Origin: Candidatus Anderseniibacteriota bacterium
GTDB lineage: Bacteria > Patescibacteriota > JAUYIX01
Length of the DNA stretch: 64,000 bases
NCBI GenBank assembly: GCA_046350855.1
Contig: JAXLZM010000001.1
Location: 217,420-281,419 of the forward strand
Direction: 5' to 3'
In this document: in pieces, positions 1 through 38,273 of the stretch
Numbering within the stretch: the first letter of the stretch is position 1
How the letters are laid out: every line of letters starts with the position of its first letter
The notes under the pieces: model-generated
The model's database searches: none
What the model was told of the DNA's origin: nothing
The model's input: the letters and a program-made list of their open reading frames with translations, nothing else
Translations under genes and position numbers: made by a program

Positions 1-410
1 GGCCGCAACCTACCTGCCTTCAGAGAGGTCAGAAGATACTTTGTAACGGGAGTAATCCTCTTTTTGAGTGCCTGGCTCGTTTTGACGAACTCAGCACGGA
101 GCACTTCCGTTTTGTCTGGCATCACTTTTCCCGAGCGGTACTCGGCCATGACAACAACCCAGACATTGCTGCTGCCATTTTTTGTAATACGCTGCCGTAC
201 ACAGACAACGCCTTTTGACGTAACTCTTGTATTTGTTTCTTCCTTGACCTCTCTTTCGAGGGTTTGTTGAAGGTTCTCGCCTTTCTGAACAAACCCACTC
301 GGGATAGTCCACACATGCGGCTTAGCCGCGTGCGTCACCAAAAGAACCTCTGAGTTGCCTTTAACTACAAGGCCGCCCACACCGATACTAACCTTCGGGT
401 AGTTCTTCAT
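1..410 (-). CDS. Nudix hydrolase, partial (C-terminus runs off the window start)
   Basis: Minus-strand translation from the ATG at 410 gives MKNYPKVSIGVGGLVVKGNSEVLLVTHAAKPHVWTIPSGFVQKGENLQQTLEREVKEETN. It has a Nudix box (Gx5Ex7REVKEE) and no stop before position 1. It is absent from the ORF track, presumably because it is open-ended. Confidence 0.6.
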   Translation of the reverse strand, partial: MKNYPKVSIGVGGLVVKGNSEVLLVTHAAKPHVWTIPSGFVQKGENLQQTLEREVKEETNTRVTSKGVVCVRQRITKNGSSNVWVVVMAEYRSGKVMPDKTEVLRAEFVKTSQALKKRITPVTKYLLTSLKAGRLR

Positions 411-678
411 GGGTATGATTATTCTCTTTTTGCTGCTTTTCTCAACTCTATTTTTCATTTGGCAGAACTATTGGATCGGGCGGCGGGTGAGTTGTAGTGG
501 CGGGTGCGACGAGACCCTCCGCAACCACATTTAGAATTGCCGTCATTGCATGTGGTGGGGACCAGGGTCTCGGAGGCCCCGCCGCGCGGAACCCGCCCGC
601 CGCCAGCCGGTCAGTTCACCCCTTTACAACCTAGGACATGTGGGTTAGTCTAGCGGCGGCCTAAACAGGTCATTTGTC

Positions 679-1270
679 ATTAGAGAGCACCGATTTCTAC
701 TAAATCAAGCGCGCGTAAACGAGCAGATACGCGTTCCAAAGATCCATTTAATTGACGCAGAAGGCACCGATCAGGCGTTGTCGAGACCCGGCAAGCCCTC
801 GAGATGGCCAAGCAAGCCAACCTGGATCTGGTCGAAGTGGGCGCCAACGCTCGCCCGCCGGTCGTCCGCATCATGGATTTTGGGGCGTACCGCTACCGCC
901 AGGAGAAGCAACTCCAGCAGCAGCGCAAGAACCAAAAAAGATCGAGATCAAGGGGATTCGGATCGGAATGCGCATCAGCGAGCACGATTTTGCCCATAAG
1001 GTTGAGCAGGCCAAAGCGTTTTTGGATGAGGGCCACAAGATCAAGCTCGAGCTGGTCATGCGCGGCCGAGAACAAGCCCCGCAGCTCCGTAGTCGCGCTC
1101 TCGACAAATTAGACGCCTTTATCGCCGCACTCGGTCCCGGGATCATGCGCGAGCAAAACATTACTAAGCAACGTAACCGGCTGAACCTTCTCCTTGGTCG
1201 CAGCAAACAAGCCGCTGCCGCAGCCAAGAGCCAGACTAAGCCTTCACCCAAACCAGACTCCAATGCCTAA
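679..1270 (+). pseudogene. infC: translation initiation factor IF-3 (infC), split across three frames by two single-base deletions; likely AUU start
   Basis: The N-terminal segment ...RVNEQIRVPKIHLIDAEGTDQ reads in the frame with p mod 3 = 1. The segment GVVETRQALEMAKQANLDLVEVGANARPPVVRIMDFGAYRYRQEKQ reads in frame 0. The C-terminal domain KKIEIKGIRIGMRISEHDFAHKVEQAKAFLDEGHKIKLELVMRGREQA reads in frame 2. The shifts fall at a GG run near 773-776 and an A6 run near 932-939. There is no ATG upstream. An in-frame ATT at 679 with AGGT 10 nt upstream matches the known AUU start of infC. Confidence 0.7.
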
Positions 1271-1466
1271 AATGAAGACCCATCGAGCCAGCGCTAAGCG
1301 CTTTAAAAAAACCGGCGGCAAGCACGGTAAGTTTATGAAGCGCAAAGCCACGCAAGGTCACTTTAACGCCCGCGAAGACGGTACGACCGTGCGACTTAAG
1401 CGCGTGGATCAAGAAGTGCATCCTTCGGACGCCAAACGATTAGCAGTTTTATTGCCTTACAAATAA
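1263..1466 (+). CDS. rpmI: 50S ribosomal protein L35
   Basis: MPKMKTHRASAKRFKKTGGKHGKFMKRKA... has a typical L35 N-terminus. It overlaps the end of infC by a few bases. Confidence 0.9.
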   Translation: MPKMKTHRASAKRFKKTGGKHGKFMKRKATQGHFNAREDGTTVRLKRVDQEVHPSDAKRLAVLLPYK

Positions 1467-1472
1467 TTTTGA

Positions 1473-1834
1473 ACTAAACGAGCCGTACCACGAGTTAAGC
1501 GCGGAACAGCGACCCGCAAACGTCACAAGCGATTGTTTAAGAGCACCAGCGGCTACACCGCCGGTCGAACACGCAGCGTCCGCCGCGCCCACGAGGCCCA
1601 GCTGCATGCTCGTAAGCACGCCCAAAACACCGCCGCATGAAGAAGCGCCAGTTCCGCAGCTTGTGGATCGTGCGTATCAACAACGGACTACGCGCCAACG
1701 GTACGACCTACTCGGCCTTTGTGCATCAAGCCAAGGTCAAAAAGGTTCAGCTGGATCGCAAATCCTTGGCCTACCTCGCGGCCGAACAACCCAAGGCCTT
1801 TGCTGCGGTGGTACAGTTTGTAGTTGGCAAATAA
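1473..1834 (+). pseudogene. rplT: 50S ribosomal protein L20 (rplT), one single-base deletion and no canonical start codon in frame
   Basis: Frame 0 gives ...PRVKRGTATRKRHKRLFKSTSGYTAGRTRSVRRAHEAQLHARKHAQN then a stop. The frame starting at 1637 gives MKKRQFRSLWIVRINNGLRANGTTYSAFVHQAKVKKVQLDRKSLAYL, the L20 C-terminus. The shift is at an A4 run near 1624-1627. No ATG/GTG/TTG lies between the upstream stop at 1470 and the PRVKRG codons. Confidence 0.7.
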
Positions 1835-2895
<1,061 letters not shown>

Positions 2896-2898
2896 GCG

Positions 2899-3285
2899 AT
2901 GGACATCTTTGAGATACCGATTTTCAAAAAAGCCTACGAGCTCTACAAGCTTTTGTACAGCTACCGCGGGGTTATTCCTAAGGCCGACCGTTATACCCTT
3001 TGGCAGCGCTGCGAGGATACGACCTTAGACGTGGTCGACCATATTTTAGAGGCCAGTCAACTTGGCAGAACCGCTAAGCTCACCGCCCTCGAGGAGGCCG
3101 CTCGTAAACTCAATCTGCTGCGCGTTTTGGTCCGCCTCGCTAAAGAGACTACTACTATTAGCGCCAAAAAGTACATCGCCGCTCAAACTCTGATCGACGA
3201 GATTGGACGTATGCTTGGTGGCTGGCTACGAGCTACGCGCGTAGCTGCACAAACTAAACAAGCGCCCGTTTTTGAGCGCTTGTAG
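2899..3285 (+). CDS. avd: DGR accessory variability determinant (Avd), four-helix-bundle protein
   Basis: 128 aa, the same length as BPP-1 Avd. The C-terminal ...KKYIAAQTLIDEIGRMLGGWLRATR resembles BPP-1 ...HQVETAQVLIAEVGRILGSWIARVNRK. It is divergent from the RT, with start codons 3 bp apart (cat gcg atg at 2893-2901). Confidence 0.8.
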   Translation: MDIFEIPIFKKAYELYKLLYSYRGVIPKADRYTLWQRCEDTTLDVVDHILEASQLGRTAKLTALEEAARKLNLLRVLVRLAKETTTISAKKYIAAQTLIDEIGRMLGGWLRATRVAAQTKQAPVFERL

Positions 3286-3295
3286 CTTGAGGGAG

Positions 3296-3430
3296 ACTTC
3301 GGGAGAAAACCGGACGCGGTACCGTAGTTCTCGTTGGCGTTGTTGACCCAGTTGGTGTCGAACTTGACGTTGTCGTCGTTGAAGTTGAAGTACGGTGCGT
3401 TGAACCAACGCTGAGCATCGTCCGGAATTT
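3296..3430 (-). repeat. DGR template repeat (TR), sense strand = minus
   Basis: A 135-bp repeat matching 3778-3912. 26 of 28 mismatches are plus-strand T in this copy versus A/G/C in the other copy, i.e. minus-strand A to N. Many plus-strand 'gtt' triplets correspond to AAC codons on the minus strand. It lies between the avd stop and the avd terminator. Confidence 0.85.
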
Positions 3431-3460
3431 GCCGCGATCCATCTACGTCACCGAGTATTG

Positions 3461-3499
3461 AGTGCGCTTGAGCGCACCCTTTGCTCTGTTTTTAATTTG
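3461..3499 (+). terminator. intrinsic terminator downstream of avd/TR (plus strand)
   Basis: Hairpin GTGCGC-TTGA-GCGCAC followed by cctttgctctgtttttaattt. Confidence 0.5.
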
Positions 3500-3680
3500 A
3501 CAGCAGTCTCATACGAGACACCTGTGCGAGATCGCAACAAGCAGTATCTCCTCAAAAACGATACGCTCATGCAAAACGGACTTCAGCATGATTCTGATCG
3601 TTAGGTTTTAAAGAGAGATTTCGGTAAGCACGATCCGTAAACCGTACTGTATGAACCTATTCTCGTCGTGATTGTAATAA

Positions 3681-3712
3681 AGAAAAAAGGGGCCATCCAT
3701 GTGGACAACCCC
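3681..3712 (-). terminator. GC hairpin plus U-run downstream of the DGR target gene (minus strand)
   Basis: On the minus strand the stem GGGGCCATCCA-TG-TGGACAACCCC (imperfect) is followed by TTTTTTCTTTATT. It is ~65 nt past the VR/stop, and could also serve as the hairpin that some DGRs need downstream of the VR. Confidence 0.4.
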
Positions 3713-3775
3713 TCTACCCGAACGCAAGAGTCAAGCTGACGAAGACTCGAGAGTTCGAGGAACAAGAGACAAGCG

Positions 3776-4633
3776 CTACTGCGGGAGAAAACCGGACGCG
3801 GAACCGTAGAGCTCGTGGGCGTGGTGAACCCAGTAGGCGCCGAACCAGACGCGGCCGCCGCCGATGCCGAAGTACGGTGCGCGGAACCAACGCCGAGCAC
3901 CGTCCGGAACGTTGTACTCGTCGCCCGAGCAGTCGATCCAGAGGTCCTCGTAGCGCGTGAGACGCTCGGGGTGGGTCAGCAGCATGCAGCCGATGGCGAA
4001 CGCACCGAGTCCGAACTCGTTGGCCGTGAAGACCTCACGAGCGCGACGCACCGAGCGACCCCTGTGCCGCATCCCGAACTGAGCCGGGATGACCAGGGTG
4101 TCACCGGTCCGCTGCTCGCCGATCTGGGCGAACATGCTGACGGTGCGCTGGTGCTGGCGGAGACGATCCGCTCCGAGCTGGTTCTCCCGGTAGTTGTAGA
4201 GCTGGCGGGTCGACTTGATCGCGGTCAGGACCTTCTCGACCGCCTCGTTGTACGAGGTGGCGATCTTGTCCCAACGCGGGATCGCGAAGAACCCCTCGGC
4301 GCCGGTGGGCAGGTCCCGGCCAGTGTCCTTCTTGTCCGGACCGAGTCCGGGGAAGTACCTGCGCAGGATGCTGACCTGGTCGGCGACCGGCTTGACCTTG
4401 TAGCCAGCCGGGTAGACGTACGAGGAGCTGACCTCCTCGCCCGCGAACTGGTTCGACACGGACAGCCGCTTGATGGCCGCTAAGATGCTCGACTGGAGCT
4501 CGCCGCCGTTGGCGATCAGACGCTGGAGGGCATCCTTGTCGATGCTGGACTCCTTGAGCGCCTTCTCGGCGGTCTCCTTGACGAAGTTCTTGAACTGCTT
4601 GTGCTGACCAGACGTGATCGACGTCGTCGTCAT
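3776..4633 (-). CDS. DGR target (variable) protein with C-terminal VR, no obvious signal peptide
   Basis: A 285-aa ORF whose C-terminal 45 codons are the VR. A strong SD (AAGGAG) sits 8 nt before the ATG. An upstream sigma70-like promoter reads TTGACA-17-TATTTT on the minus strand. Confidence 0.8.
   Translation of the reverse strand: MTTTSITSGQHKQFKNFVKETAEKALKESSIDKDALQRLIANGGELQSSILAAIKRLSVSNQFAGEEVSSSYVYPAGYKVKPVADQVSILRRYFPGLGPDKKDTGRDLPTGAEGFFAIPRWDKIATSYNEAVEKVLTAIKSTRQLYNYRENQLGADRLRQHQRTVSMFAQIGEQRTGDTLVIPAQFGMRHRGRSVRRAREVFTANEFGLGAFAIGCMLLTHPERLTRYEDLWIDCSGDEYNVPDGARRWFRAPYFGIGGGRVWFGAYWVHHAHELYGSASGFLPQ
3778..3912 (-). repeat. DGR variable repeat (VR) at the 3' end of the target gene
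   Basis: Homologous to the TR with adenine-specific differences. It covers the last ~45 codons of CDS 3776..4633 (...YNVPDGARRWFRAPYFGIGGGRVWFGAYWVHHAHELYGSASGFLPQ*). The conserved 3' block cgggagaaaaccggacgcgg is identical in TR and VR and is a likely IMH region. Confidence 0.85.
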
Positions 4634-4779
4634 CGTCGTTTCTCCTTAGCGCAAATATCTGACCCTTGCGGGTTCAGGCTTTGTCTCTTTGTCGGAGACG
4701 AGCACCCTGTGGGTTGCGTACCAAAAACAAACAATCCACAAAGCGCTCATCTCGACGCTTGGCAAAGAACAATCGAAGT

Positions 4780-4808
4780 AAAATAGCACTTTTTTAGCTT
4801 GTTGTCAA
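4780..4808 (-). promoter_or_regulatory. sigma70-like promoter of the DGR target gene (TTGACA-N17-TATTTT), giving a ~150-nt leader
   Basis: The minus strand reads ttgaca acaagctaaaaaagtgc tatttt. Confidence 0.4.
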
Positions 4809-4847
4809 CCGGTGCCGTTCTACCGATTTTGTAGCTATAGTAGGGCC

Positions 4848-5210
4848 ATGGAGTATGACTGGGGTATCCGAATAGTACGTAAACCGATCACCCTCGCGGC
4901 GGTCCAGCAGGCCGCAAGCAAAACCTATGGCGAGATGGTTAAGGCGGTTGTCGATCTCAAAAAAGGCATCCTGGCCATGGGTGGCGAGATGCACGCCGAT
5001 GCAGAAAAAACACTCCTCGAAGACGGTTCAGCGCAGGCGGACTTGTGGGGTATCAACTTAGTGCCTGGCCTACCAAGGGAGAGCTGGATCGAATATGTTT
5101 CTTTAATTAATATCAAGCCGCGTGCTGGTAACCGCACTATGGAAATTCAAGATCCTAAGATGCGTGAGCAAATCCAAATGGTTATCACCCGATTAATCCC
5201 GCGAGCATGA
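4848..5210 (+). CDS. hypothetical protein
   Basis: ORF MEYDWGIRIVRKPITLAAVQQAASKTYGEMV... The ATG at 4848 lies within the longer track ORF 4812..5210. Its stop overlaps the next start (ATGA). Confidence 0.5.
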   Translation: MEYDWGIRIVRKPITLAAVQQAASKTYGEMVKAVVDLKKGILAMGGEMHADAEKTLLEDGSAQADLWGINLVPGLPRESWIEYVSLINIKPRAGNRTMEIQDPKMREQIQMVITRLIPRA

Positions 5211-5473
5211 CCTTTGCAGAACAGATGGGCAACATAGGGAGCGAATTGACTCGTGCAGTGGGTCGTTCACCGGAATTACGTCAGCAATCCTTGCTACGAG
5301 CAGAGGGTTTAGTGGATCGAACATTGCGCGAAGTTGGGCTACGGGATGCGCAACGACGCGAGTTAGGGTTGCTTAAAGAGCAGATTAAGGTAGGTGCTAA
5401 CCTACAAGACCTGGTGAACTATTGCCTCCCCTTTGCGCTGCTCGCACGTCGCGAGCACGACTCTAGACCCTAG
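5207..5473 (+). CDS. hypothetical protein, translationally coupled to the upstream ORF
   Basis: MTFAEQMGNIGSELTRAVGRSPELRQQ... There is a 4-bp ATGA overlap with the preceding ORF. Confidence 0.45.
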   Translation: MTFAEQMGNIGSELTRAVGRSPELRQQSLLRAEGLVDRTLREVGLRDAQRRELGLLKEQIKVGANLQDLVNYCLPFALLARREHDSRP

Positions 5474-5599
5474 GGATACTACCGTTTTTTATACACAGGT
5501 TTAAAAGCAAAAAGCACGATTATCATCCGCAATTTGGCTGCACTCGGGTATTCTGCTGTGCAAAACGTTTTCCAGTTTGTATGGAAAGCGGTTCACAAA

Positions 5600-5627
5600 T
5601 TGACGCGGGGAAAAGTCCTACTAAAAT
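5600..5627 (+). promoter_or_regulatory. sigma70-like promoter (TTGACG-N16-TAAAAT) in an AT-rich intergenic region
   Basis: Read directly upstream of the 5688 ORF. Confidence 0.4.
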
Positions 5628-5687
5628 TTAATCTTCTCTTAAGGTCGGTGCGGTAGTGTCGCTCTGCTTAACCGTAATTAGCTACAA

Positions 5688-5948
5688 ATGACTAAGCCAA
5701 CAACTAACGGAAAAATCACTTTGGATGACCTCGCGGGTATGGTTCAGCGGGGATTTGATGAAGTAAACAAAAAAATGCAAAAGGGGTTTGAGGAATCTAA
5801 ACAGCGGGACGCCTACTTACAAAAACAAATAGACAACGTCTTGGGTGACGTCACCGATATCAAAAAAGTCGTCAAGCGGCTGCCGACGCAAAAAGACTTT
5901 GTCGCCCTCAAAAAACGGGTTTATGTGTTAGAGCAGCACGTTGTATAA
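5688..5948 (+). CDS. hypothetical small coiled-coil protein
   Basis: An 86-aa ORF, MTKPTTNGKITLDDLAGMVQRGFDEVNKKMQKGFEESKQRD... Confidence 0.5.
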   Translation: MTKPTTNGKITLDDLAGMVQRGFDEVNKKMQKGFEESKQRDAYLQKQIDNVLGDVTDIKKVVKRLPTQKDFVALKKRVYVLEQHVV

Positions 5949-5954
5949 AAAAAT

Positions 5955-6368
5955 TTATTTTGCTTCTGCGCTACGCGAGCGCAGCCACGTGTAGGCCAGC
6001 AAAATCGAGGCAAGTCCGAGTGTAACCCCAAGCGCGTCGATCGCCACATCGCGCACAGCCGGCTCGCGTCCAGGAACATAGCCCTGGTGAATCTCATCGA
6101 CCGCGGCGTAGGCTACCGCCAGTAAGGCGGCTAACCCGTAACGCTGCCAACGAGACCGGAGCGGCACAGGTAAGGCCCTAAAAATTAAAATCACAAGCAC
6201 CGCAAACTCGAGGCCGTGCGCGAGTTTACGTAAAATAAAATCCTGTTCAAAGCCGCTCCGTAAATCTGGAATCGACGAGAACATCCAAATCACGGCACCC
6301 CACACGACTACCAGGGCCCAATTAAGGGTGGTGCGCTGACTGGGACTGAGACGGCGGAATGGGTTCAT
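5955..6368 (-). CDS. VanZ-like family membrane protein
   Basis: ...AAVDEIHQGYVPGREPAVRDVAIDALGVTLG matches the VanZ signature, with multiple TM helices. Confidence 0.7.
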   Translation of the reverse strand: MNPFRRLSPSQRTTLNWALVVVWGAVIWMFSSIPDLRSGFEQDFILRKLAHGLEFAVLVILIFRALPVPLRSRWQRYGLAALLAVAYAAVDEIHQGYVPGREPAVRDVAIDALGVTLGLASILLAYTWLRSRSAEAK

Positions 6369-6427
6369 CCTGCAAAGTGTAGCGCATGTTGCCGTACGCG
6401 GGGGGGCGGATGCTCAACAAAACACAA

Positions 6428-6462
6428 AAGAGCTCCCTCCCCTTGGAGCTCTTCTGGTTTTA
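6428..6462. terminator. bidirectional intrinsic terminator (AAGAGCTCC-loop-GGAGCTCTT, U/A-rich on both sides)
   Basis: A 9-bp perfect stem flanked by ctggtttt on the plus strand and ttttgtgttttgtt on the minus strand. It lies downstream of the minus-strand gene 6611..7423. Confidence 0.55.
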
Positions 6463-6610
6463 ACGAGCCAGATGGGAAGCCCGTAAAAGCACCTCCGAGA
6501 AACACAAGAGTGTGGGACAAACGATAGGGGGAAGTGCGTTTACCTAACTGTAGCCCGTTGTGAGGCGGGTGCAAGCGCGCGTGTGGATAACGAGTTTGGC
6601 CAGTCCGGCG

Positions 6611-7423
6611 TTACTTGAACAGCTGACTGAACATATCGAACAACCGAGCCTGGTCCCCCGTTTGTGGGTCGTTTGGGGAAGCTCCGATGTAGCGCTGGGC
6701 GATGTCGAGGGGTGCATCAAAAGCGTAGCGTTGCTCGAGGAGCCTGACGTACGAGGCCGCGTACAAAATACTCCAGTTTGCGTTGGCAAGTCTGCGGATC
6801 CGCTCGGTACGCGCGGTGTCGCCCGTTTGGTACTGGGGTAAAAGACCAGCGGGATCCTCCTGCTCAAGTTCCTCGGCGGTCGAGACACGCACTTGCGCCA
6901 GACCAATACTGGAATCCTCGCCGCTTAAGGCCGTGAGCACATCCCGCTCCAGCTCGTTGTCCTCGAGCCAGCGCAGTTCTTGTTCAATAATGGTAGCGAC
7001 CAGGGCGGGCTCGGTGTGCACGGCCGCGGCCGCACCGGCGATGTGGGCCAACTGATCGGCACTCAAGTACAGATCGTTGTCCGCCACTACGGGTTTGTAG
7101 TGTTCGGTCTCTCCGAGTGGCTGGTAGGGCACCTCGGGGGCCGTGCGCGCAAACTCTACTGAGCGATCCACGATCTCTTTAGATTTACCGAGCGAGTCCT
7201 GCACGCGCTGCTTAGTCTGATCAAAATTAATGGTGCAGCCCGCTAGACCGAGACTTACAGCGACGACCATGAGCAAGAGGGCTACTTTACGCTGGTTCTG
7301 CCGGATAGCTAACCAATCTTTGAGCAGCACTACGGGTAACACAAAGACCGCGGTCAACACCATGATAATGGCGTAGAGGACCGTAAAGGTGGTTTGCGTC
7401 AGCCAGCGCAGCAACTCGAGCAT
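6611..7423 (-). CDS. hypothetical membrane-anchored protein (possible lipoprotein, LAGC)
   Basis: A 270-aa ORF with an N-terminal TM helix, then an LGLAGC lipobox-like motif. Confidence 0.5.
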   Translation of the reverse strand: MLELLRWLTQTTFTVLYAIIMVLTAVFVLPVVLLKDWLAIRQNQRKVALLLMVVAVSLGLAGCTINFDQTKQRVQDSLGKSKEIVDRSVEFARTAPEVPYQPLGETEHYKPVVADNDLYLSADQLAHIAGAAAAVHTEPALVATIIEQELRWLEDNELERDVLTALSGEDSSIGLAQVRVSTAEELEQEDPAGLLPQYQTGDTARTERIRRLANANWSILYAASYVRLLEQRYAFDAPLDIAQRYIGASPNDPQTGDQARLFDMFSQLFK

Positions 7424-7491
7424 GCGGGGCAGTCTACCCTACTCGACCGGACTTTGACAGTCACGCGGGGTCGTGGCTCAATTGGTGCGAG

Positions 7492-8367
7492 ATGAGTGGA
7501 TCGTTTGCGGCGTTTTGGCTTGATTTTTTAAGACGCGTACAAGGGGGAATTCAGACAGGAGCCCCGCGCGCCGTTTTGGTCTTGTTCATCTTTGGATTCT
7601 TTTACCTGGTCGCGCAACTGTTTAAGCTCTACGGCTATCGCAGCGTCGACGTCAACCTCTACCGCAAACCTACCCAAGAGGCTATCAATCAATACAACAA
7701 GGCTCGGCGTAAAGTTTTTATCGGACGCTTTTTTTGGTTGTTCTTTTTGACCCTGGCTTGGGTCGGAGCGATCTCGGCCAGCGGAGTCGCCATCCGCACC
7801 GTGCTAGAGGGCTTAGGGTTTTTGGGAGTCTCCCTTTCGTTTGCTTTGTCGGACTTGATTCAACAGTACATTGCCGGCTTTTTAATTCTGAACCAAAAGC
7901 ACGTTAACATCGGTGAGCAAATTGAGGTGCACGGCACGGCCGGAGTCGTTAAGTCGATCGAGGCGCGCTACACCATCGTGCGCGACTTTAAAGAGAACGA
8001 CGTGATGGTGCCCAACACGGACATCTTACGCAACGCGGTCTTGATCTCCTCGGTCGAGGGGTTGCAACGCGACGTGATTCGCGTGCGAGTCGATAATGAC
8101 ACCGATTTACGCGTGGCGATCAAGGTGGGCGAAGAGGCCATTAAAAATACGCGTGGCGTGGACTCCTCAGTACCGCCGCGCGGCTACTTACGCTACTTTG
8201 GCGATTCGATGCAGCTGGCTTTTTATTACACGGGGGCGGCCGCGCGGCGGGAACACTTTATTGTGCGCAGCGAAGCACTGCTCAACCTAACCGACGCCTT
8301 TAAGCGCAACAACATCAAGATCGCCTACCCGACCGGGCTGCAATACATCGAGACCGAGGCGGATTAA
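7492..8367 (+). CDS. mechanosensitive ion channel, MscS family
   Basis: TM helices, then ...LSDLIQQYIAGFLILNQKHVNIGEQIEVHGTAGVVKSIEARYTIVRDFKENDVMVPNTDIL, the MscS beta domain. A TTGACA-N17-CTCAAT promoter ends ~9 nt before the ATG, suggesting a possible leaderless transcript. Confidence 0.75.
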   Translation: MSGSFAAFWLDFLRRVQGGIQTGAPRAVLVLFIFGFFYLVAQLFKLYGYRSVDVNLYRKPTQEAINQYNKARRKVFIGRFFWLFFLTLAWVGAISASGVAIRTVLEGLGFLGVSLSFALSDLIQQYIAGFLILNQKHVNIGEQIEVHGTAGVVKSIEARYTIVRDFKENDVMVPNTDILRNAVLISSVEGLQRDVIRVRVDNDTDLRVAIKVGEEAIKNTRGVDSSVPPRGYLRYFGDSMQLAFYYTGAAARREHFIVRSEALLNLTDAFKRNNIKIAYPTGLQYIETEAD

Positions 8368-8370
8368 GCG

Positions 8371-10581
8371 CTAGGCAAAAAAGGCTCGCAACACAAACGG
8401 GGTCACGAGGACTGAGAGTAGCCCGAGCGTCGTGAGCAGCACGACCGTAGTTTTGAGTGAGAGTGTACGACGTAACCCGAGCGTCAAGACCACGAGCAAC
8501 CCGCCAACGATTGGGTAGAGGTAGCGCGCCTGTGGCTGAAAATAATCGCGATTGAGGTAGGCGAGGCCGGCAAGTTCTGCCAAAAAAGCAGCGGCCATCC
8601 AACGCGTCAAGCGACGACCAAGTCGTTGCGTCGTTTGCAAGTGCACCGCTCCCGCCACACCTAACGCGATCGGCACGAGGTAGGCCACGTAGAGTAAATC
8701 AGGCAACGGCACGGTCCAACTGCCATAGCGTCCGACAAACGTCTGCCAGAGCACCACCACAAACGAGAGAGCGTAGTTCCAGGTGACGTTCTCGCGGTAG
8801 GGTGCCAGCTCTGGGAGTTCTCCCAAGTGTACCTCTGGTAGTACGAGTCCAGTTTGGTGGTAGTTAAAAATCAGCCAGGCGATGAGTGGAATGCTCGCGA
8901 TCAAGAGCGTGCCCAACCAAATGCGGAAGTGGTGGGCTCGACGCGCCAAAAGCGTGATGGCCAATCCGAGGACGAGGACGGCGGGCGCGGCAAACAGTTT
9001 GGACAAAACGGCGGCCGAACCCGCCAGTGCGGCGACCAGGTACCAGGCGGTGCTCCGGGCGCGGGCGCTGTCACTGCGGCGCCAGAGGTGCACCAGGGCC
9101 AGGGTGAGCAGGCTGACAAAAATAAAGGCGAGTCCATCGTCGTTGATGGTGGCAAATTCGTGCGCGAGCATGGGCAGCGCCGCAAAGAGGAGCAGCGGCA
9201 CGACGCGCCAGCCGCTCGGCAAGACCAAGCGCGAGATCGTAAAGACGAGGTAGAGTTGTACCAGACCGAGCAGGATCGCAAAGAGCCGCAGCGAGTCGGT
9301 ACCGAGACCGAGTGGACGAACCATCTTGAGCCAGGTGGCTCCGGCTAGATAGTAGAGCGGGGGCTGGTGGGGTTCGCGATTGACACCAAAGTCGATGGGG
9401 AACGGCTGCGGCAAGCGCCCGTAATCGGTGACGTAGCGTACATAGGTAGTGTGGCTGTCTTCGTCGTTACCCGCCCCGCGGGGTAAGAGCACGGCGATGA
9501 TGGTAGAAAGCGACAAAAAGAGTGCCAAGGCTAGTGTCAGGATCGTTTTTTCTAGGGTGGTGAGTGGGGTGTTTTGGGCCCGACCAGAAAAAACGCGCGC
9601 CGTGGTGGCGTGTTCGGCCAGACGCGCGGCCCGCTCAGGTGGTGCAAAGCGCCGCCGCGCCAGCGTGCGCAAAAACAGGGCGCGCCAAGAGGCGTTGAGC
9701 GCCTCGAGTTGGCAGTAGATCCAAAAGCGCGCCGTTTTGAGCGGGCCGCGCCAGTAGCGACGGGTTACGTACCGCAAGGTCTTTTTAAATTCTTGCAGAC
9801 GAGCGCGGCTGGCCCGGGCTCCGCCATAGAGCTGTTCGCCTGATTTGTTATGAGCGTGCACAACCACGGCACTCCCCAGCACGTAGGTTTGCTGATTTTG
9901 GCGGGCTAGCCGCCAGCAGAGCTCGAGATCCTCTGAGTACAAAAAAATGTTCTTGTCGAGCACGGTCGGGCCAGCGCCCGCTCGTGGAGTGCGCTCAAAA
10001 AGGAGGGCCGCACCCCAGGCACAGTCAACGGGAACCAATCCTCCCGCCCGCACCCGGCGCTCAAGCAGTTTTTCGGCAAAAAAGAGTTTGGCAATCTGGG
10101 CCCAGATACTGGGGAACCGATAAAAATTGGGCTGAAAACTCCCGTCGGGATACTGCAGGCGCGGGGCTAGTGCCCCAAAGCGACGCGCACCACCTCGAGA
10201 GTCAGCCGGGTGCGGAGTGTTTAAGCGATCTGCCTCGGCCACCAGCGCATCCAGGGCACCGGCCGTGACCTCGGTATCGGGGTTGAGTAACAAAATGTAG
10301 CGGCCGCGGGCCTGCTGGATAGCGCGGTTGTTAGCTCGAGCAAAGCCTTCGTTTTGGGTGTTTTGCAGGAGGGTGATGTGCCCGTGCGTGCGGGCCCAAC
10401 CTGCAACGTGTTGGGCGGTGCCATCTCCGGAGGCATTATCTACCACAAAAACCTCGTGACTCGCACGCGGCGCGTGACGTGTAAGTGCTGCCAGGCAGCG
10501 CTCGATATACGCGCGTGATTTATAAGTGACGATGATAATGGAGAGATCGAAGGTCATACGGTCGGTCGCTCCGTACGCCAA
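8371..10581 (-). CDS. bifunctional glycosyltransferase: N-terminal GT2 domain fused to a large polytopic GT-C/PMT-like membrane domain
   Basis: N-terminus MTFDLSIIIVTYKSRAYIERCLAAL...VFVVDNASGDGT...LLLNPDTEV (GT2). The C-terminal ~400 aa has about 10 TM helices. Confidence 0.65.
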   Translation of the reverse strand: MAYGATDRMTFDLSIIIVTYKSRAYIERCLAALTRHAPRASHEVFVVDNASGDGTAQHVAGWARTHGHITLLQNTQNEGFARANNRAIQQARGRYILLLNPDTEVTAGALDALVAEADRLNTPHPADSRGGARRFGALAPRLQYPDGSFQPNFYRFPSIWAQIAKLFFAEKLLERRVRAGGLVPVDCAWGAALLFERTPRAGAGPTVLDKNIFLYSEDLELCWRLARQNQQTYVLGSAVVVHAHNKSGEQLYGGARASRARLQEFKKTLRYVTRRYWRGPLKTARFWIYCQLEALNASWRALFLRTLARRRFAPPERAARLAEHATTARVFSGRAQNTPLTTLEKTILTLALALFLSLSTIIAVLLPRGAGNDEDSHTTYVRYVTDYGRLPQPFPIDFGVNREPHQPPLYYLAGATWLKMVRPLGLGTDSLRLFAILLGLVQLYLVFTISRLVLPSGWRVVPLLLFAALPMLAHEFATINDDGLAFIFVSLLTLALVHLWRRSDSARARSTAWYLVAALAGSAAVLSKLFAAPAVLVLGLAITLLARRAHHFRIWLGTLLIASIPLIAWLIFNYHQTGLVLPEVHLGELPELAPYRENVTWNYALSFVVVLWQTFVGRYGSWTVPLPDLLYVAYLVPIALGVAGAVHLQTTQRLGRRLTRWMAAAFLAELAGLAYLNRDYFQPQARYLYPIVGGLLVVLTLGLRRTLSLKTTVVLLTTLGLLSVLVTPFVLRAFFA

Positions 10582-11676
10582 CGAGTGGCGGTCTCGCCCC
10601 GTAGATAATCGATCGCGCCTACCAGGCTAGCCACATTAGTCAGGACAAAAAAGGCCAGGGCCGCAAATGGACTAAAGAGCAACCCCAGTCCCGCGGCGAG
10701 GAGTGCCGCCACTTGGAGCACCAGCACCACCCCAAAGCCGGGTGCACCGACCAATACAAGTGCCAGCGTAGCGATCAAGGTCAAACCAAGCAGCTCGACC
10801 CCGATCCAGCGCAAAAACTTGTGCGAGAGGAGCAACATACACAATCCAGGTCGACGCAGCGGTGTGGCCGCACGCAGCAACAGTGGCAACGCGACAAAGC
10901 CTTGCGTCACGAGTCGGCGCTTACGCCGGAACTCCTGCCAGACCGAGGTAGTACTGGGCTCGAGCCCGACCGCCTCGGGCACATACTCCACACGTTTACC
11001 TCGGGCCACGAGCAAAACCGGTAGCACCAAATCACTGACCAAACGCGGCTGTAAACGGATATAGTCACTCCGTCGCACGGCATAAATCGGGCCGTTGACC
11101 CCGACCGTTGAGAGCAATCGACTCTCCCCTTGCTTAATCACGTGATCCAAGCGACGAGACATTATCATTAACCCGCTCGAGTTGGGTTGTGGCGTTTGAG
11201 TGGCTACGGATCAGGTGGAGCGCTCCCGTTGTTTACCGCGACAGGTGGTCCGCAAATGGCAAGGCAAGCGGCGGACCGCATGCGTTGCCGAAGAGATATT
11301 GCCATCCGAAAACGACGATCTCTGGTTTGCGGTTGTTGCACCCAGATATAGTGTACGATTTTGACATTCCGTTTTACCGATGCGACCTCATAGCGGATCA
11401 AACGATTTGAGGTTGGCCGGCGCGCGAGAGCCGCTGCAAGGTGCATTACCAACTGATCGGTCCCATCAGTTTGACCATCAAAAAACACGACGTCTCAGAA
11501 CCGCCTGACAGGTAATCTTGTATAAGCAGGGTTTTAAGAGTCGCCAAAATAGTGTCTCGCTCGTTATAGGCCGCGACCACGACATCGAGACACGGGGTAG
11601 TAGTTCTGAGCTGAGCCGCGGGGTTAGCAGCGGAGAGCGCCCCCTCCTGAGAAATAGTCAAAACGATCCAGAGCAA
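10554..11676 (-). pseudogene. GT2 glycosyltransferase gene fragmented over at least three frames
   Basis: The N-terminal piece is ...PCLDVVVAAYNERDTILATLKTLLIQDY (11676->11446). The middle piece is (V)FFDGQTDGTDQLV... (11488->11204), in another frame. The C-terminal piece is ...DHVIKQGESRLLSTVGVNGPIYAVRRSDYIRL...VWQEFRRKRR with TM helices (11168->10554). The junctions are consistent with single-base deletions. Confidence 0.6.
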
Positions 11677-11948
11677 AGGTAGCCCAAAAACGCATCGCCT
11701 TTAAGCCCAAGCTTAGATAAAAAATCACTTGCCAAATGAGCGTGGGCAGATGTACCGCGACACCGTTGCTTTGCCCCAGGCGCCGACGCAGTTCTCCCCC
11801 TAAGGGTCGCAAGCTCCGCATGTACGCGAGGTCATAAGGCTGACCGGTTGGCGTTCAGCCAACACCGCTTGGCGCGCGCAGCTTTCTCCATGATCCCACT
11901 CATCACGAGTGACCAGCGCGGAAACGTCCGCACCGGCTCGTAGGCCCG

Positions 11949-12695
11949 TCAAAAAGCTGCGTGGCCAACGGCACGCGGCCAGGGCAAGAGCCGCATGCCA
12001 AACCAGTAGTGGTTGCGCAGCTCCAAACGATCCCGATTGTAGTTGCGGCCAGCTGGTGTGACCTTATGGTAGACCTTGATGTCAGGCGTATACCAAATCT
12101 CGTAGCCGCGATCGAGCATGCGGTAGGAGAGGTCCTTCTCCTCGGTCGAATAAAAATAGCGCTCGGGGTATAAACCGGTCTCGTTGAGCGCGCTGGCCCG
12201 AATAGCATGGCCGGCCCCGGGATAGTAATAGGTCTCAAACGGTCGCGCCCGATCTCGCGCTGGCAATCGGCCCGGAAACCCCCAGTGCAAATTTTTGTCG
12301 GGCGTAAAATAGCTGCGCTCCTCAAAGGCCAGCACCCCCAGCATCGGTTTAACCCTAAAATATTGTACGATCCGCTCGGTCGCACGCACGTCACGGTAGC
12401 TGGCATCGTCGTCCACGCAGACGATAATCTCGCCCCGCGCCACGCGCATCCCAGCATTACGACCCCCCGCCACCCCCAAATTTTTGCTCGGCTGAACCAC
12501 GCGCACCCAACCAAATCGCTCGCGCAAGAGCTGCAAGGTAGGTTCATCCGGGCCATTGACGACCACAATGACCTCGAGCGGTTTGTAGGTTTGCTGCGCG
12601 AGAGCGACAAGATTTTCGGCGAGGTCGGCCGTGCGGTTACGCGTCAAAATCACGTAGCTAACCAGGGGGCTCAGGGCCGATTGGGCGACTTCCAT
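11949..12695 (-). CDS. GT2 glycosyltransferase (rhamnosyltransferase-like); C-terminus possibly truncated or shifted
   Basis: SYVILTRNRTADLAENLVALAQQTYKPLEVIVVVNGPDEPT...NLGVAGGRNAGM...IIVCVDDDAS. It ends abruptly at ...RNHYWFGMRLLPWPRAVGHAAF*. A plausible continuation (HLPTLIWQVIFYLSLGL...) lies in another frame at 11821->11624. Confidence 0.6.
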   Translation of the reverse strand: MEVAQSALSPLVSYVILTRNRTADLAENLVALAQQTYKPLEVIVVVNGPDEPTLQLLRERFGWVRVVQPSKNLGVAGGRNAGMRVARGEIIVCVDDDASYRDVRATERIVQYFRVKPMLGVLAFEERSYFTPDKNLHWGFPGRLPARDRARPFETYYYPGAGHAIRASALNETGLYPERYFYSTEEKDLSYRMLDRGYEIWYTPDIKVYHKVTPAGRNYNRDRLELRNHYWFGMRLLPWPRAVGHAAF

Positions 12696-37000: not shown

Positions 37001-37086
37001 TGTGCCCAGAGTATACCAAAATCCCACGCAGCAAAACAAAAACCACCCGACTAACGAGTGGCTTTTGTTTATACACGGGCTTTGGA

Positions 37087-37266
37087 CTAAACGTCCTGGG
37101 CCTTAACGGTCGTGCGCTTGTTACCTTTGGCGCGCTCTACTGCGCGATCCAACATCATGGAGACGTGCTTGTTCAACTCCTCCAAAAGCTCACCACTGGT
37201 CTTGCCGTCCTTGCTCTTGATGTAGGCTTTAACTTTGCTGCCGACGAGCATCATATCTGCTGCCAT
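37087..37266 (-). CDS. bacterial histone-fold protein (DUF1931 / HBb-like singlet histone)
   Basis: MAADMMLVGSKVKAYIKSKDGKTSGELLEELNKHVSMMLDRAVERAKGNKRTTVKAQDV, about 60 aa. Its C-terminal half aligns with archaeal HMfB ...LAKILEEMGRDIASEAIKLARHAGRKTIKAEDI. Confidence 0.65.
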   Translation of the reverse strand: MAADMMLVGSKVKAYIKSKDGKTSGELLEELNKHVSMMLDRAVERAKGNKRTTVKAQDV

Positions 37267-37397
37267 GTAAATCACCCCCTCTCGGGTAGGTTAGTAAATT
37301 TCTGCCCGAGTATAGCACAAGGCCTTGCGACGCCAAGTGGAGGGGTTTTATGCAGTTTCCCAAAATCTATGCTATGGAGGCGGGTCCTCCGGCAGAA

Positions 37398-38273
37398 CTA
37401 TTTTTGGCTCAACGAACCAGACTCTAGCTCGGTTGCGCGCAGTTTTTCGAGGAGGGCTTGGCCGCGTTCGCCCAGACGTTCCAGTTGTGGCTCAAGTTCT
37501 TTGGTTTTGAGTTTGCCCTCAGTAACCCCTCGCTCAAGCTCCGGAACCAGGTCGTGCACCTCGGTGACAAAACGATTTTGTCGATACTCTAGAGAGAGGT
37601 AGGGTAAGGAAAACTGGGAGCGATAGCGCTCCAGTACAGCGCGGACCGCGGGGTCTTCGGCTTTGTACATCTCAAGAACAAACTCAGGATCGAGCCGTTG
37701 CACTCCCAACTCTTTTTGGAGTTCAGGGCCATGGCGCAAGACTAACTCACTCGGCAAAAGAACTTTGAGGCGCGCTAAGAATTCTTGCTGCTTGACCGGG
37801 TCGCGTTGTTGCTCAGCTTCGATAGTCTGCACGGCTTGCTCGAGGGCAAACTTGAGCTGCTCGCGTGAGAACCGCCCGAGGGTTTCTTGCTGCACGGCTT
37901 GCTCGCGGGTCTCGGCCGGTTCTTGTTCTAAGAGTGGCTCGCTCTTTTGCGTCTCGCTACCCGGCAGTTCCCCGGCCGATTCGTAGGCCGCCTCGACCAT
38001 AGCTCGTTGCTCCGCAATTTCTTGGGGCGTGGCAGCGCCCCCGGGCAGTTTTTCTAACTCTTTTTTACGGATCTCAGCGGTAACCGCTCGGGCCTTTTGT
38101 ACCGCTTTTTCGAGTTCTTCTGGTCGGGTGGTTTCGCCACCAATTTCTCGATCAAAGTCGGCCAACTCTTGGCTCTTTGTTTTTTTAGGACGTTCAGGCA
38201 CACGCAGTTTGCGCGTGATTTGATCGTCGCTCTCGACTGGATGGGGTTCGCGTGGTTCACCCGGCATGTTCAA
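37398..38273 (-). CDS. hypothetical acidic Glu/Gln-rich protein
   Basis: A 291-aa low-complexity coiled-coil-like ORF. Confidence 0.4.
   Translation of the reverse strand: MNMPGEPREPHPVESDDQITRKLRVPERPKKTKSQELADFDREIGGETTRPEELEKAVQKARAVTAEIRKKELEKLPGGAATPQEIAEQRAMVEAAYESAGELPGSETQKSEPLLEQEPAETREQAVQQETLGRFSREQLKFALEQAVQTIEAEQQRDPVKQQEFLARLKVLLPSELVLRHGPELQKELGVQRLDPEFVLEMYKAEDPAVRAVLERYRSQFSLPYLSLEYRQNRFVTEVHDLVPELERGVTEGKLKTKELEPQLERLGERGQALLEKLRATELESGSLSQK

Follow-up and report, generated by a model that had tools for sequence, protein, structure and literature searches.

An HLp-like, alpha3-truncated histone in Candidatus Andersenbacteria with a probable face-to-face assembly

Bacterial histones were characterised between 2023 and 2025, with experimental work on only two of them, HBb and HLp. 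Schwab et al. (2024) sorted histones with a truncated alpha3 helix into several groups, including the face-to-face (FtF) histones and the "bacterial dimer" histones (PMC11390915); in this class alpha3 comprises 3-4 residues and alpha2 is 4-5 residues shorter than in nucleosomal histones. HLp of Leptospira perolatii (9QT0/9QT1/9QT2), whose ortholog in L. interrogans is LA_2458, is a tetrameric FtF histone with a truncated alpha3 that wraps ~60 bp of DNA (Hu et al., 2025; PMC12701072). HBb (Bd0055) of Bdellovibrio bacteriovorus (8CMP, 8FVX, 9EZZ), the type of the bacterial dimer group, is a strict dimer that bends DNA, and its group lacks the R48 and N52 (numbering of Schwab et al.) through which FtF dimers contact one another (PMC11390915). 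In Archaea, HTkC of Thermococcus kodakarensis (9F2C) is a tetrameric FtF alpha3 histone. The name DUF1931 properly belongs to the pseudodimeric Aq_328 proteins, in which the usual DNA-binding residues are missing (PMC11390915, PMC12701072).

Published summaries place FtF histones mainly in Spirochaetota, Planctomycetota, Bdellovibrionota and Myxococcota. For the Patescibacteria (CPR), Supplementary Table 1 of Hocher et al. (2023) includes two singlet histones of Candidatus Andersenbacteria (OGY33174.1 and PIT98311.1) and one of a Patescibacteria bacterium (PMC10627809). This table was the only source on CPR/Patescibacteria histones that our literature search returned, and we found no paper discussing them; CPR bacteria are not mentioned in the main texts of the three key histone papers, nor are CPR/Patescibacteria histones mentioned in the supplements of Schwab et al. 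(2024) in their text form. Histones in Andersenbacteria are thus already catalogued and undiscussed, and an explicit FtF assignment appears to be new. Here we describe a small gene in a 64-kb stretch of DNA from a Candidatus Andersenbacteria genome (the window), which an earlier reading of the letters alone (the sequence-only reading) had picked out as a possible histone gene. Our analysis confirmed that the gene is real and that it encodes a single-domain bacterial histone.

The histone gene and its expression signals

The sequence-only reading had placed the gene at 37087-37275, the extent of a minus-strand ORF that the ORF list opens at a GTG and whose translation ends in ...ELLEELNKHVSMMLDRAVERAKGNKRTTVKAQDV. 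The C-terminal half quoted in that reading agrees exactly with the ORF translation, and the ORF itself exists, but the coding sequence is shorter than proposed: its true start is the ATG at 37266 (Table 1). We place the start there because a strong Shine-Dalgarno sequence, GAGAGGGGGTGA, ends just upstream of this ATG, because 20 of 20 homologs begin at or just after the corresponding Met, and because public collections hold the 59-aa form and not the 62-aa form. The GTG at 37275 is merely the first possible start after the upstream stop, a mechanical extension of the frame. The protein, MAADMMLVGSKVKAYIKSKDGKTSGELLEELNKHVSMMLDRAVERAKGNKRTTVKAQDV, has a computed mass of 6.5 kDa and a pI of 9.6 (12 K+R vs 8 D+E), and it is identical to NCBI MFO0704614.1, which is encoded on a 292-kb contig and annotated there as "hypothetical."

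Orthologs in five other assemblies (numbered below by locus, as L003 and so on) share 73-88% nucleotide identity with the gene. Synonymous codon differences outnumber non-synonymous ones in each comparison, by 16 vs 3 in L003, 15 vs 4 in L006, 18 vs 10 in L008, 19 vs 8 in L007 and 19 vs 12 in L009; this marks a gene under strong purifying selection and not an ORF that arose by chance. The gene also recurs with the same surroundings on independent contigs, which are 8 kb, 140 kb, 0.78 Mb and 1.17 Mb long. An ORF of only 59 codons that NCBI labels merely as a hypothetical protein might be suspected of being spurious, or a fragment of an archaeal contaminant. We give that suspicion next to no credence: it is effectively refuted by the conserved context, which extends to several independent assemblies including the two longest of these contigs, and by the synonymous excess, and the closest relatives of the protein are bacterial. 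Recent horizontal transfer was also considered and rejected on composition, as the G+C content around the gene (0.50, in a local range of 0.48-0.61) agrees with that of its flanks, and we saw no sign of a recent genomic island or of contamination.

The signals upstream of the gene are conserved to different degrees. The Shine-Dalgarno sequence is kept in four of the five relatives, being identical in L003, L006 and L008 and reading GGAAGGGGGTGA in L009. Further upstream lies a -35 and extended -10 pair (Table 1), the single site returned by a sigma-70-like consensus scan for which shuffled sequences gave an expectation of 0.3. All five relatives have the element TG(C/G)TATACT at an unchanged distance, and L008 and L009 have TTGGCG as well; elsewhere the intergenic sequence has diverged among the five. 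We infer that this pair serves as the promoter of the gene. On the other side, a G+C-rich hairpin with a 7-bp stem begins 17 nt past the histone stop codon. The RNA from 37030 to 37095 (minus strand) folds with -25.2 kcal/mol (z=-5.5; 0/200 shuffles as stable), and a simple terminator scan did not flag the hairpin. From these signals, the histone gene is most likely monocistronic, forming a transcription unit of its own, and the signals are compatible with strong expression.

Table 1. Features at and beside the histone gene, in window coordinates
Feature	Position	Strand	Details
Histone coding sequence	37087..37266	-	59 aa plus TAG stop; based on the ORF list, NCBI match, PDB matches, structural model and selection
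Shine-Dalgarno sequence, GAGAGGGGGTGA	37283..37272	-	Read from the sequence; ends 5 nt before ATG 37266
Promoter-like site (putative)	37309..37336	-	-35 TTGGCG at 37336..37331, 16-nt spacer, extended -10 TGcTATACT at 37317..37309
Intrinsic terminator	37033..37070	-	A-tract AAACAAAA, stem CCACUCG / CGGGUGG, loop UUAGU, then UUUUUGUUUU
Acidic orphan	37398..38267	-	289 aa, Glu-rich (16.8%), pI 5.1, all-helical; directly upstream of the histone gene
Extended -10 before trxB, TGGTATACT	37018..37010	-	

Histone fold and placement in the face-to-face group

All significant matches to the protein in a phmmer search of the PDB were prokaryotic histones: HLp (9QT0; E=1.1e-11), with 50% identity and no gaps over residues 3-58 (56 residues), HBb/Bd0055 (8CMP/8FVX; 2e-5) and HTkC (9F2C; 1.7e-4). 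A family profile built from the window protein and 20 homologs (21 aligned sequences) matched HLp at 1.8e-23 (85.6 bits), HBb at 2e-11 (47 bits) and HTkC at 1.7e-9 (40.8 bits). AlphaFold2 modelled the monomer (pLDDT 80) with helices at residues 2-18, 24-48 and 56-58, which corresponds to a predicted layout of alpha1 (2-18), L1 (19-23), alpha2 (24-48), L2 (49-55) and a one-turn alpha3 (56-58). Among the 50 PDB matches listed by Foldseek for this model, the best were histones; HLp, HBb and HTkC led the list, each with probability 1.00. The model superposes only loosely on HLp and the other crystal structures (TM ~0.6, rmsd ~7 Å), as is expected when an obligate-dimer fold is modelled as a monomer, and for the fold call we therefore rely chiefly on the 50% identity to the crystallised HLp.

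These results bear out the stand-alone, singlet histone fold that had been proposed from the letters; the model has the alpha1-L1-alpha2-L2-alpha3 arrangement of a histone and not the non-histone helical hairpin that had been named as the contrary outcome. The likeness to archaeal histones that had been spotted by eye is likewise visible in a sub-threshold match to the NCBIfam archaeal histone model NF043032 (18.5 bits vs a cut-off of 50, over residues 26-59 only). HTkC shares R45 and the S-K motif with the window protein and differs from it in being archaeal, in an L1 two residues longer, in a Glu at the N49 position and in its lower overall similarity. The helices of the model, the Foldseek matches and the homology to three solved alpha3 histones together identify an alpha3-truncated prokaryotic histone fold: the chain ends four residues after L2 (A56-Q57-D58-V59), with a 3-residue helix at 56-58, alpha2 has 25 residues in the model, and the alignment with HLp continues without gaps to the C-terminus. 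The archaeal nucleosomal (HMf) type was rejected, given the NF043032 score below cut-off, the lack of a PF00808 match and the truncated alpha3.

The label "DUF1931-type," which the sequence-only reading had attached to the gene, did not hold. A Pfam scan of the window protein returned no family even at E<=10, including DUF1931 (PF09123) and PF00808, and DUF1931 is ruled out as its family; in the 21-sequence alignment, three of the 21 members gave sub-threshold DUF1931 matches, the best at E=0.0067. The Pfam DUF1931 proteins, such as Aq_328 of Aquifex aeolicus, also have a histone fold, but they are doublets without conventional DNA-binding residues, whereas the window protein is a single 59-aa fold that has such residues. 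The label comes solely from the databases, in which HLp goes by the name "DUF1931 domain-containing protein."

We compared the protein with HLp residue by residue, using the HLp contacts given in PMC12701072 and the gapless phmmer alignment, in which a position in the window protein is the HLp position minus 4. The three residues of the HLp tetramer interface, R49, N53 and R55, are all present, as R45, N49 and R51. The RD clamp of HLp (R55-D62) corresponds to R51-D58, which is predicted to form the same salt bridge, and the L2 motif R-[KT]-T-x-x-x-D is found as R51-T52-T53-V54-K55-A56-Q57-D58. As for the DNA contacts, S14, K15, K17 and K21 of HLp are identical in the window protein (S10, K11, K13 and K17), as are T27, G29, T56 and T57 (T23, G25, T52 and T53), and A13 is replaced by G9. 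A check on the DNA-contacting positions had been suggested along with the original histone proposal, and its outcome favors DNA binding, as most HLp backbone-contact residues are kept, including K11, K13 and K17. Three of the six residues in the HLp tetramer hydrogen-bond network are changed: S52 to G48, T61 to Q57 and F63 to V59.

The interface residues are also conserved among relatives. R45 and N49 are invariant in the 21 aligned sequences and in 81/81 relatives from GTDB species genomes; D58 and T53 are invariant in the same 81, and R51 is present in 80 of them. Positions 45, 49, 51 and 58 lie outside the patterns used to retrieve the 81 relatives, while the invariance there of S10, K11, K13 and K17 is partly by construction, the SKVKAYIK pattern having been used for retrieval. 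In neighbor-joining clustering, the window protein groups with CPR sequences in a clade of the HLp-like cluster, and HBb falls outside that cluster.

HLp is thus the closest characterised relative of the protein. Beyond the residues listed above, the two proteins have in common a length of ~60 aa, a short alpha2, a one-turn alpha3, an identical SKVKAYIKSK motif in alpha1 and an identical NKRTTV motif in L2. They differ in host, HLp being from Spirochaetota and the window protein from Patescibacteria, and the Leptospira proteins carry an acidic N-terminal extension of ~10 residues that the window protein does not have. HBb belongs to the same alpha3-truncated family (~40% identity) and shares the S-K motif, the alpha1 lysines and the RD clamp R51-D58, and its L1 is one residue longer. 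The placement in the "HBb family" made from the letters was therefore sound as to relatedness, given the HBb profile score, and wrong as to assignment, given the much higher score of HLp and the absence of R45 and N49 from HBb, which has S and D there. Taken together, the comparison with HLp and its relatives supports the assignment of the window protein to the bacterial FtF (HLp-type) alpha3 histones, rather than to DUF1931 or strictly to the HBb group.

We think it rather likely that the protein is an HLp-like FtF nucleoid-associated histone, a tetramer (dimer of dimers) that binds and wraps DNA irrespective of sequence, with a probable role as a general chromatin protein in the Candidatus Andersenbacteria genome. 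By homology, two chains would form an obligate head-to-tail histone dimer through their antiparallel alpha2 helices, and two such dimers would associate face to face through the C-terminal end of alpha2, L2 and alpha3, using R45, N49 and R51. The basic perimeter of the tetramer could then bind the DNA backbone without sequence specificity, through the N-terminal turn of alpha1 (G9-S10-K11), K13, K17 and the L1/L2 beta-bridge (T23, G25, T52 and T53), with the R51-D58 clamp keeping L2 in place. As in HLp, the DNA would be compacted or wrapped in units of ~60 bp.

It is also conceivable, if unlikely in our estimation, that the protein is a strict dimer of the HBb kind, which would bind along DNA and bend it by ~84 degrees per dimer in the manner of HU, with no tetramer and no wrapping. 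HBb is the second-best structural relative, with a profile E-value of 2e-11; its contacts S9, K10, K12, K16, S24 and T53 (PMC11317129) are kept in the window protein as S10, K11, K13, K17, S24 and T53, and the replacement of half of the HLp hydrogen-bond network (G48, Q57 and V59) would fit a protein that does not form the tetramer. However, the profile score for HLp is almost double that for HBb, and the bacterial dimer group is defined by the absence of precisely those two residues (PMC11390915) that are invariant in the 81 relatives of the window protein and that are S and D in HBb. Moreover, the HBb contacts K52 and R57 correspond to T52 and Q57 in the window protein, as in HLp (T56 and T61). 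These points argue for the tetrameric FtF reading over the strict dimer.

Gene order and the neighbors of the histone gene

The local gene order runs from a RimK-like ATP-grasp gene (-) through TypA/BipA (+) and the acidic orphan (-) to the histone gene (-), and on to TrxB (-), a Yip1-domain membrane protein (-) and a leucyl aminopeptidase (-). The sequence-only reading had located the histone gene between trxB and an acidic Glu-rich protein, and correctly so: the downstream gene matches Pyr_redox_2 (E=7e-55), and the composition of the upstream product is as described (Table 1). The core order of acidic protein, histone and TrxB recurs in relatives with histones of 80% identity or more. In L005, L006, L007 and L008, TypA lies upstream of it; L003 and L004 have no TypA there and carry a SUF cluster and an M17 peptidase instead. 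The more distant loci of CPR bacteria, Planctomycetota and Leptospira do not have the core order, the published Leptospira neighborhood being SMC/MAP/DUF350, and tblastn of the window neighbors against 85 loci found the arrangement only within the Andersenbacteria-like clade.

The persistence of the histone-then-trxB order across this clade could be taken to mean that the histone fold serves something other than chromatin, as a low-abundance specific regulator or a protein-protein adaptor tied to its redox or housekeeping neighbors. Peroxiredoxin, SOD and SUF genes do occur among the neighbors in relatives, the surroundings in L003 are redox-rich, and Schwab et al. caution that not every prokaryotic histone-fold protein organises genomes (PMC11390915). 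We nevertheless consider such a role improbable. With a promoter motif and a terminator of its own, the histone gene would not be co-transcribed with trxB, and the adjacency is gone in the distant CPR relatives L010 and L011, which argues for an inherited gene order rather than a functional operon. The DNA-backbone contact residues and the net positive charge are kept in the window protein, both homologs studied experimentally bind DNA non-specifically, and in L. interrogans the ortholog is essential and among the most abundant proteins. A general chromatin protein thus remains the preferred reading. We also considered trxB and the acidic neighbor as functional partners of the histone and set them aside, since an arrangement limited to one clade is no evidence of a functional link.

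A gene of the acidic-orphan type is always found at this position in the Andersenbacteria-like clade. The protein matched no Pfam or NCBIfam family, a search of 5.8 billion proteins found nothing beyond the protein itself, and a single-sequence AlphaFold2 model (pLDDT 52.6) was uninterpretable. Its counterparts show only 25-34% identity, against 83-93% for the histones encoded next to them, so the acidic protein evolves far faster than the histone. More speculatively, it might be a lineage-specific partner of the histone, such as a chaperone or a DNA mimic.

The trxB gene most likely starts at ATG 37000 and not at the listed TTG 37039, which would overlap the histone terminator. Its extended -10 element (Table 1) lies only 9 nt before this ATG, and we saw no Shine-Dalgarno sequence upstream of it; together, these features suggest that the trxB mRNA is leaderless or nearly so. 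The TGnTATACT motif is common to the upstream regions of trxB and the histone gene. In L003 (JGI Ga0606642_0000002, the 1.17-Mb contig), the histone gene lies in a redox- and Fe-S-rich block (positions 1..12180) that holds SufBD, cysteine desulfurase, NifU, an FeS-assembly protein, TrxB, two peroxiredoxin-like genes and SOD, together with two M17 aminopeptidase paralogs. The 64-kb window holds no HU/IHF gene and no second histone gene, which says nothing about the genome as a whole, and a tRNA/tmRNA scan and Rfam at its gathering threshold returned nothing within the window.

Relatives in CPR bacteria and possible significance

The profile search returned 1574 cluster representatives (50% identity) at E<=1e-3, with 256 at E<=1e-10. 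In a set with one genome per GTDB species we found 345 relatives. The closest of these come from CPR metagenome-assembled genomes (MAGs) of the Parcubacteria group, Andersenbacteria, Falkowbacteria, Kerfeldbacteria, Buchananbacteria and the "Patescibacteria group," followed by many Planctomycetota (Pirellulales, Phycisphaerae and Sedimentisphaerales) and by Leptospira. The two Andersenbacteria histones tabulated by Hocher et al. belong to the same candidate phylum as the window protein and share its 59-aa architecture, the S-K motif in alpha1 and the C-terminus NKRxTVKxQDV; their sequences are divergent (MEGEVLVVASKVRAYLKG...), and they were tabulated only, not classified as FtF.

The window protein belongs to a family described only recently and represents neither a new protein family nor a new mechanism; its novelty is modest because Andersenbacteria histones already stand in the 2023 supplementary table. 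What the present analysis adds is that a histone of apparent HLp type is stably encoded in the Andersenbacteria clade, most likely in a transcription unit of its own, with conserved synteny and under purifying selection, and that its close relatives extend to several other CPR lineages. CPR bacteria become candidates for histone-based chromatin. At a practical level, a "hypothetical protein" can be re-annotated, a small but real consequence.

We suggest tentatively, and with less than even confidence, a broader reading in which the FtF histone is vertically retained, abundant and possibly the principal chromatin protein in Andersenbacteria and other Patescibacteria, as in Leptospira; the other lineages concerned would be Kerfeldbacteria, Falkowbacteria, Buchananbacteria and MAGs of the Parcubacteria group. 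If this were true, a deep radiation of ultra-small bacteria with reduced genomes would join the short list of histone-organised bacteria, and the finding would inform the question of whether FtF histones go far back in Bacteria or came to them from Archaea.

A few observations concern the databases searched. Four contigs labelled as MAGs of "uncultured Gammaproteobacteria" (L019, L028, L045 and L073) carry histones that cluster among CPR sequences, that of L073 with the Parcubacteria/Patescibacteria proteins of L068, L069 and L082. Either these are CPR contigs that were mis-binned or mis-labelled, or the genes moved by horizontal transfer. One entry, P0023, a 458-aa polytopic membrane protein, was discarded as an artefact of clustering or look-up; it sits in the 90%-identity cluster of the 55-aa histone P0017, and the two sequences are unrelated. 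Lastly, many of the best profile matches (P0024-P0032 and others) carry two complete alpha3-truncated folds in tandem on one chain of 118-150 aa, and each half keeps the R...N.R.T motif. From their sequences, these doublets look like covalent FtF-type pseudodimers, distinct from the DUF1931 doublets.
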